The notes under the pieces: model-generated | Seen by the model: the letters and a program-made list of their open reading frames with translations, nothing else | Told to the model about the DNA's origin: nothing | The model's database searches: none | Made by a program: the position numbers and the translations under genes | Assembly: GCA_963838885.1 (NCBI GenBank) | Contig: CAWITB010000010.1 | Location: forward strand, 5,389-69,388 | Origin: Bryobacterales bacterium | Lineage (GTDB): Bacteria > Acidobacteriota > Terriglobia > Bryobacterales > Bryobacteraceae | Reading direction: 5' to 3' | Length of the DNA: 64,000 nucleotides | In this document: positions 26,258 through 26,301 of the stretch, in pieces | Layout of the letters: every line of letters starts with the position of its first letter | Numbering within the stretch: the first letter of the stretch is position 1

Positions 26258-26301
26258 TTTTTTTTTTTTTTTTTTTTTTTTTTTTTTTTTTTTTTTTTTT
26301 T
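26258..26301. repeat. 44-nt poly(T) homopolymer at the junction of the two duplication copies
   Basis: Counted directly: T from 26258 through 26301, preceded by ...ccatagg and followed by ggtaacgg. Confidence 0.95.

Follow-up and report, generated by a model that had tools for sequence, protein, structure and literature searches.

A 44-nucleotide poly(T) tract between two 9.3-kb direct repeats in a Bryobacterales contig: probable misassembly filler between two strain versions of one locus

A run of 44 T residues (T44) lies exactly between two copies of a 9.3-kb gene segment, arranged as head-to-tail direct repeats, in a contig from a Bryobacterales bacterium (GenBank assembly GCA_963838885.1, contig CAWITB010000010.1). 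We analyzed a stretch of 64,000 nt of this contig (here called the window). On the basis of its sequence, we consider it probable (at roughly 80%) that T44 is misassembly filler between two strain versions of one locus that were laid in tandem, and that the duplication is false. The sampled community would have held at least two close strains of one Bryobacterales (Acidobacteriota) population, ~97.5% identical at this locus. An error-prone assembly, most probably of long reads, would not have merged the strain versions of the 9.3-kb segment and would have set them head to tail instead (i.e., a "false heterotype duplication"). The features on which this reading draws are listed in Table 1.

Table 1. 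Features of the window around the T44 junction (positions count from the first base of the window)
Feature	Position	Strand	Basis or remark
IS3-family insertion sequence left of copy 1	15547..16877	-	OrfA and OrfB with rve domains
Homopolymer patch A8 (T8 on the coding strand) in IS3 OrfA	16655..16662	+	Protein and DNA alignments
Unique 65 nt from the IS3 end to the start of copy 1	16878..16942		Absent before copy 2
Copy 1 of the ~9.31-kb unit	16943..26254	Genes on both strands	Copy alignment, Pfam
VWA gene of copy 1, frameshifted and cut short	25279..26254	+	Copy alignment, catalogued product P0005
Spurious ORF through the T tract	26103..26306	+	Translation ...KGYYAIG-F14-W (stop)
Non-homologous junction agg + T44 + g, 48 nt	26255..26302		Pairwise alignment of the copies
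Perfect T44 homopolymer, core of the junction filler	26258..26301	+	Single occurrence in the window; shuffling expectation 0
Copy 2 of the 9.3-kb unit, ~97.5% identical to copy 1	26303..35619	Genes on both strands	Copy alignment, Pfam
VWA gene of copy 2, intact, 330 aa (P0121)	34643..35635	+	93% identical to P0001
HicA toxin and frameshifted HicB antitoxin, single copy, right of copy 2	35704..36105	+	HicA_toxin 1e-17

At the joint, copy 1 ends with ggttattacgccat and is followed by agg (26255 to 26257), the uninterrupted T run and a single g (26302), after which copy 2 opens with gtaacggttcacg. A base-by-base reading of this order confirms the claim of the earlier note that the copies are not directly joined. 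Only 3 nt to the left and 1 nt to the right separate T44 from authentic gene sequence, and both agg and g mismatch the natural continuations of the unit (i.e., caagccggaacaatag after copy 2 and ...actatttc before copy 1). The native sequence 5' of copy 1 reads atttc up to the boundary and gtaacgg from there on. When aligned with it, the last three T of the run (followed by one c/g mismatch) could be part of copy 2, so the boundary of the junction is uncertain by 3 to 4 nt. The junction sequence and the repeat and copy alignments revealed neither an insertion sequence nor a repeat at the joint, where TTT is the only possible microhomology. At the edges of T44, no adapter or oligo-dT primer sequence was recognized.

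The window contains the exact 44-mer once, and 100 shuffles that preserve its dinucleotide composition contained no instance. With T44 set aside, the longest homopolymer of the window measures 8 nt, and a set of 81 related loci, most of them from Acidobacteriota MAGs and 1.39 Mb in total, contained none of at least 12 nt. The run had been called extremely atypical, and these counts bear that out. Homopolymers of the 40-nt class (e.g., 44 nt) are hypermutable, and a genuine T44 would not be expected to last while the copies diverged to a dS of 0.06. The same counts weigh against the reading that neither the duplication nor the T tract is an artefact (i.e., that the joint of a tandem duplication, or of a homologous fragment integrated from another strain, was filled by poly(dT) that was untemplated or expanded by slippage). 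In favor of this reading, the T run is uninterrupted and sits exactly between the copies, and the three native T before copy 1 could have seeded slippage. However, the joint deprives a gene under strong purifying selection, which extends right up to the joint, of its stop and last codons, and the arguments against a long-lived tandem repeat given below hold here too. We know of no bacterial mechanism that adds a 44-nt homopolymer at a duplication joint, and we regard this reading as very unlikely.

The gene damaged by the joint is the VWA gene of copy 1, which carries a 1-nt deletion at 26069 and is cut by the junction 16 nt before its stop codon, so that this codon and the 5 codons preceding it are lost. 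The catalogued protein P0005 (314 aa) is identical to the translation of this frameshifted gene. In copy 2 and in P0001, a VWA protein from a related MAG (GCA_963795935.1), the C terminus reads ...KGYYA(V/I)KPE(E/Q) and is followed by a stop codon. The earlier note had ascribed an artefactual poly-Phe tail to the replacement of the last codons by the T tract. The translation of the ORF through the tract has that tail, while the T tract turns out not to be its sole cause: the ORF exists only because the main frame of the copy 1 gene is also broken by the deletion at 26069. The poly-Phe tail is most likely best treated as an artefact as well. Elsewhere in the window, the minus strand carries a second, distant VWA-domain gene (5077 to 6114). 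Within it, 49 nt show 73% complementarity to the VWA genes of copies 1 and 2 (inverted repeats I1 and I2), a resemblance that probably reflects no more than a conserved motif.

Two known roles for homopolymers near gene ends were considered and excluded. As the T-tract of an intrinsic terminator, T44 would need an upstream hairpin; a terminator scan of 25900 to 26700 found no G+C-rich hairpin upstream of it. Like the tracts of phase-variable contingency loci, T44 is a homopolymer within a coding region and alters the reading frame. Contingency tracts, however, typically measure less than ~20 nt, are found in the promoter or 5' end of a gene and are conserved in relatives, whereas T44 is more than twice that long and replaces a 3' end. 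The phase-variable role is excluded by the lack of the tract in copy 2 and in the related MAG (P0001), both of which have a normal C terminus.

The repeated unit contains nine ORFs over both strands (five or six on the minus strand and three or four on the plus strand in the Pfam scan), in the order small ORF (+), GT4 (-), TPR (-), GT2 (-), GT2 (-), lactonase (+), adenosine deaminase (-), HhH-GPD glycosylase (-) and VWA (+). The lactonase is of the 7-bladed type, and the small ORF has no family match in Pfam. Judged by their Pfam assignments, these appear to be ordinary chromosomal genes. Copy 2 runs on naturally into the VWA stop codon and then into the HicAB genes. The contig crosses both copies with unique flanks on either side, and these unique chromosomal flanks, together with the 2.4% divergence between the copies, rule out a concatemer of a circular element. 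The remainder of the window is housekeeping chromosome, including the genes for GlmS, RseP, Dxr, GlnRS, GluRS, PurK/PurE and isocitrate dehydrogenase. Gene, tRNA and Rfam scans of the window detected no phage or plasmid genes, no tRNAs and no Rfam matches. Within this housekeeping part, a GluRS-type gene (51466 to 52905) and a GlnRS-type gene (49740 to 51605), both for class I aminoacyl-tRNA synthetases, are adjacent on the minus strand and apparently intact. Separately, a 51-nt direct repeat (56716 to 56766 and 58973 to 59023; 82% identity; 2.3 kb apart) has one copy within the isocitrate dehydrogenase ORF and the other beyond a glyoxalase-family gene, and may be due to chance.

The public record itself contains the duplication. 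A single NCBI contig (79,293 bp) is the catalogued source of the VWA products of both copy 1 (P0005) and copy 2 (P0121); therefore, the duplication was not created by cutting out the window. A single-copy version of the locus was sought in other genomes by a lactonase search of genome contigs, which returned 80 loci. The closest was that of the Bryobacterales MAG MFD09603.bin.2.231 (GCA_963795935.1; Nanopore soil survey), with ~85% nucleotide identity. This MAG has only gene pairs of the unit (i.e., lactonase with adenosine deaminase on one contig and HhH with VWA on another), and since the locus is split over two contigs, the natural boundaries of the unit are not comparable there. The first 24 nt of the unit had no match in a scan of public metagenome contigs, and the collections searched held no independent assembly of the locus.

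An alignment of the copies gave 218 to 233 substitutions (~2.4%), mostly at third codon positions, and ~11 small indels. With seven genes pooled (Nei-Gojobori), dS was 0.062 and dN was 0.0058 (dN/dS = 0.09), and in the 185 nt of VWA that lead up to the junction, 10 synonymous changes stand against 2 nonsynonymous ones. The divergence is a mosaic, with 0 substitutions over 900 nt in places and 6 to 7% elsewhere. The outgroup MAG matches copy 1 at 17 sites and copy 2 at 15 sites of the lactonase gene, and each copy at 23 sites of the adenosine deaminase gene; the copies are equally derived relative to the outgroup. These figures indicate that the differences are real, selection-filtered evolution rather than noise, and that the copies are two strain haplotypes or old paralogues, not recent duplicates. 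An identity of ~97.5% that is real, symmetric and filtered by selection resembles that of two co-existing strains of one species. The copies thus differ at the allele or strain level and by variants that do not look like errors, as expected for a false heterotype duplication. A genuine duplication would be expected to show one copy decaying asymmetrically or both copies intact; here the divergence is symmetric, dN/dS is low and frameshifts occur in both copies.

These observations bear directly on the possibility that the two copies are a genuine tandem duplication (i.e., diverged paralogues in one genome) and that the T run is only a badly read joint. A single contig with unique flanks does pass through both copies, and a difference of ~2.4% is enough for long reads to tell them apart. 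Against this stand the symmetric divergence relative to the outgroup, a dN/dS of 0.09 combined with private frameshifts in both copies, which is unlike redundant paralogues, and a joint with neither an insertion sequence nor a repeat. A true joint would also have had spanning reads and would have been polished to ordinary sequence. Long tandem duplications in bacteria are quickly lost through homologous recombination (RecA dependent), and a 9.3-kb direct repeat with identical tracts of 900 nt would be expected to collapse long before reaching a dS of 0.06. The persistence of a real tandem pair to that divergence is unlikely.

The quality of the consensus was assessed from the frameshifts, which in the lactonase, adenosine deaminase and VWA genes were polarized against the outgroup. 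Copy 2 has private frameshifts at 32845 (+C; lactonase) and 33693 (+T; adenosine deaminase), and copy 1 has private frameshifts at 23758 (+G; adenosine deaminase) and 26069 (-G; VWA). At 17281 and 17375 (3' end of GT4), copy 1 is shorter than copy 2 by 1 nt, a difference that is unpolarized in direction. The adenosine deaminase gene is broken in both copies (23563 to 24536 and 32925 to 33896), at different positions, a state at odds with strong purifying selection, except if consensus errors account for the indels. Similar damage occurs outside the repeat. The dxr gene (DXP reductoisomerase; minus strand), which is essential, consists of two overlapping ORFs in different frames (41461 to 42240, with the N-terminal and middle domains, and 41031 to 41549, with the C-terminal domain), pointing to a single-base frameshift near 41.5 kb. 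A gene of the enolase superfamily (MR_MLE; 10170 to 11193; minus strand) is fragmented, with a break near 10.65 to 10.9 kb: the end of the N domain lies in ORF 10651 to 11193 and the C domain in ORF 10170 to 10895, in different frames, and the larger part of the N domain did not turn up in the ORFs there. Next to copy 2, HicA is intact while HicB has ~30 residues in one frame only, which suggests two 1-nt deletions. The large GlnRS, GluRS, IDH, PurK and GlmS genes are intact; thus, the contig is not uniformly poor. Taken with the homopolymer patch described next, the frameshifts inside and outside the repeat mark the contig as an indel-prone consensus of moderate accuracy. It probably derives from long reads at modest depth, the platform being deduced from these features.

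The IS3-family element left of copy 1 provides a second example of a misplaced homopolymer. The element has its canonical A7 slip site at 16539 to 16545 (T7 on the plus strand), and a DNA alignment with two related IS copies places its outer end, TGACCTTG..., at 16877. No inverted repeat matching this outer end was found at the opposite end, and the element may be truncated near 15.5 kb. At the A8 site, the coding strand of relatives reads GTAC GGCGGGCTGGAG GTGAGC (12 nt; Gly-Gly-Leu-Glu), whereas the window reads GTAC GTTTTTTTTAG GTGAGC (11 nt), i.e., eight T stand in place of nine conserved bases and the OrfA frame is broken. OrfA homologues that are 99% identical elsewhere in the protein keep the GGLE residues (AKY-GGLE-VSEAQ). 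Intact OrfA homologues (P0122 and P0127) are encoded on two NCBI contigs (337 kb and 226 kb), which may come from the same MAG as the window. From these alignments, the A8 patch looks like a block overwrite and not like a slippage product of the original sequence. Together with T44, it shows that single-base runs replaced real sequence at least twice in this contig. On the same strand, one patch consists of A (A8) and the other of T (T44), a pattern that speaks against a single tool following a simple "default base" rule. The A8 patch also shows that local mis-rendering does happen in the contig, a point in favor of a real duplication with a misread joint; weighed with the evidence on divergence and recombination, we still judge that alternative unlikely. 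A further idea, that copy 2 starts at the IS3 boundary (i.e., a break in the repeat graph), is weakened by the position of the IS end, 65 nt and not ~10 nt from the start of the unit.

On the minus strand, the layout is formally copy 2, then A44, then copy 1, and it could be read as a reverse-transcribed, polyadenylated 9.3-kb RNA inserted beside its parent. Only in this formal reading does the A run stand at a 3' end. Tails made by bacterial poly(A) polymerase are of roughly the length of A44, and in eukaryotic LINE-mediated processed retrocopies, too, a long A run comes after the copy on one strand. Unlike such retrocopies, the unit here has genes on both strands and so is not what one transcript would yield, its tandem arrangement is exact, and the divergence of the copies is symmetric. 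Pfam scans of the ~55 ORFs of the window found no reverse transcriptase (RVT family). A perfect head-to-tail arrangement would need an insertion point exactly at the 5' end of the transcript. Moreover, at a dS of 0.06 neither copy looks like a recent derivative of the other, and the contig is demonstrably error-prone. The earlier note had already considered a retrocopy unlikely for its two-stranded gene content and the lack of a reverse transcriptase in the window; with the symmetric divergence added, we rate it as extremely unlikely.

Under the favored reading of a false strain-haplotype duplication, the link from the end of one version (26254) to the start of the other (26303) would be supported by no genuine molecule. 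The filler might stem from a single chimeric or stalled read, whose unchanging signal was rendered as a long homopolymer during basecalling, or alternatively from a scaffold gap that a later tool (e.g., for format conversion or polishing) turned into bases. The joint would have been left unrepaired by polishing because it had no true spanning read. To our knowledge, no documented behavior of an assembler or basecaller gives exactly agg, T44 and g. A short-read de Bruijn origin (i.e., a poly-T k-mer hub, with 44 = k + 1 and k = 43) was rejected in view of two copies sharing 900-nt identical tracts and of the many 1-nt frameshifts. The earlier preference for an artefact is thereby strengthened by the frameshifts, the A8 patch and the strain-like divergence; which route was taken, including the oligo-dT priming or gap filling that had been proposed, is not identifiable from the sequence alone.

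Published misassemblies offer partial parallels. In false heterotype duplications, neighboring copies differ at the level of alleles (Ko et al. 2022, Genome Biol 23:205, PMC9516828), and typically a gap or "depth-gap" lies between the pair as a result of incorrect gap filling or erroneous reads (Ko et al. 2022, PMC9516828). As in those cases, two versions of a locus would stand side by side here as apparent paralogues, so that genes are falsely gained and the gene models at the joint are broken (PMC9516828). The counterpart of their gap may be the 48-nt non-homologous filler exactly between the copies. The described cases are from diploid vertebrates (PMC9516828) and their spacer consists of Ns, whereas here co-existing bacterial strains in a metagenome would be involved and the spacer is a 44-nt homopolymer. 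Single chimeric nanopore reads are able to cause contig misjoins (Courtine et al. 2020, PMC7500977; also White et al. 2017, as cited in PMC7500977). The resemblance lies in one aberrant long read linking non-adjacent sequences and persisting in the final contig. However, for such reads no sequence bias at break points and no adapter remnant or homopolymer was reported (PMC7500977), in contrast to the T44 found here. The literature searched contained no specific report of a poly-T junction artefact. The segment also resembles the genuine bacterial tandem duplications of the Roth and Andersson literature, in which a multi-gene chromosomal segment is copied head to tail. Those duplications form at repeats or microhomology without long filler and are identical at the start and unstable, whereas the present joint has 48 nt of filler and its copies differ by a dS of 0.06.

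If T44 is an artefact, as we conclude is probable, a public MAG contig (79,293 bp) carries a false duplication of ~9.3 kb, in which nine ORFs are counted twice. The consequences would include a fake poly-Phe-tailed VWA fragment and the frameshifted protein P0005, which protein databases already list. A cheap screen for misassembly of this class may be to look in G+C-rich prokaryotic contigs for long, perfect homopolymers, above all where they separate direct repeats that are nearly identical. There is a very small chance that T44/A44 is genuine and marks an undescribed bacterial event (i.e., an RNA retrocopy beside its template, or an untemplated homopolymer joining a fragment from another strain). 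A genuine tract would give the first sign that duplications in bacteria can arise through RNA or through an untemplated homopolymer, which would be remarkable. As an artefact, it would have no biological significance for the organism, and its practical worth would be that of a warning on the public record.
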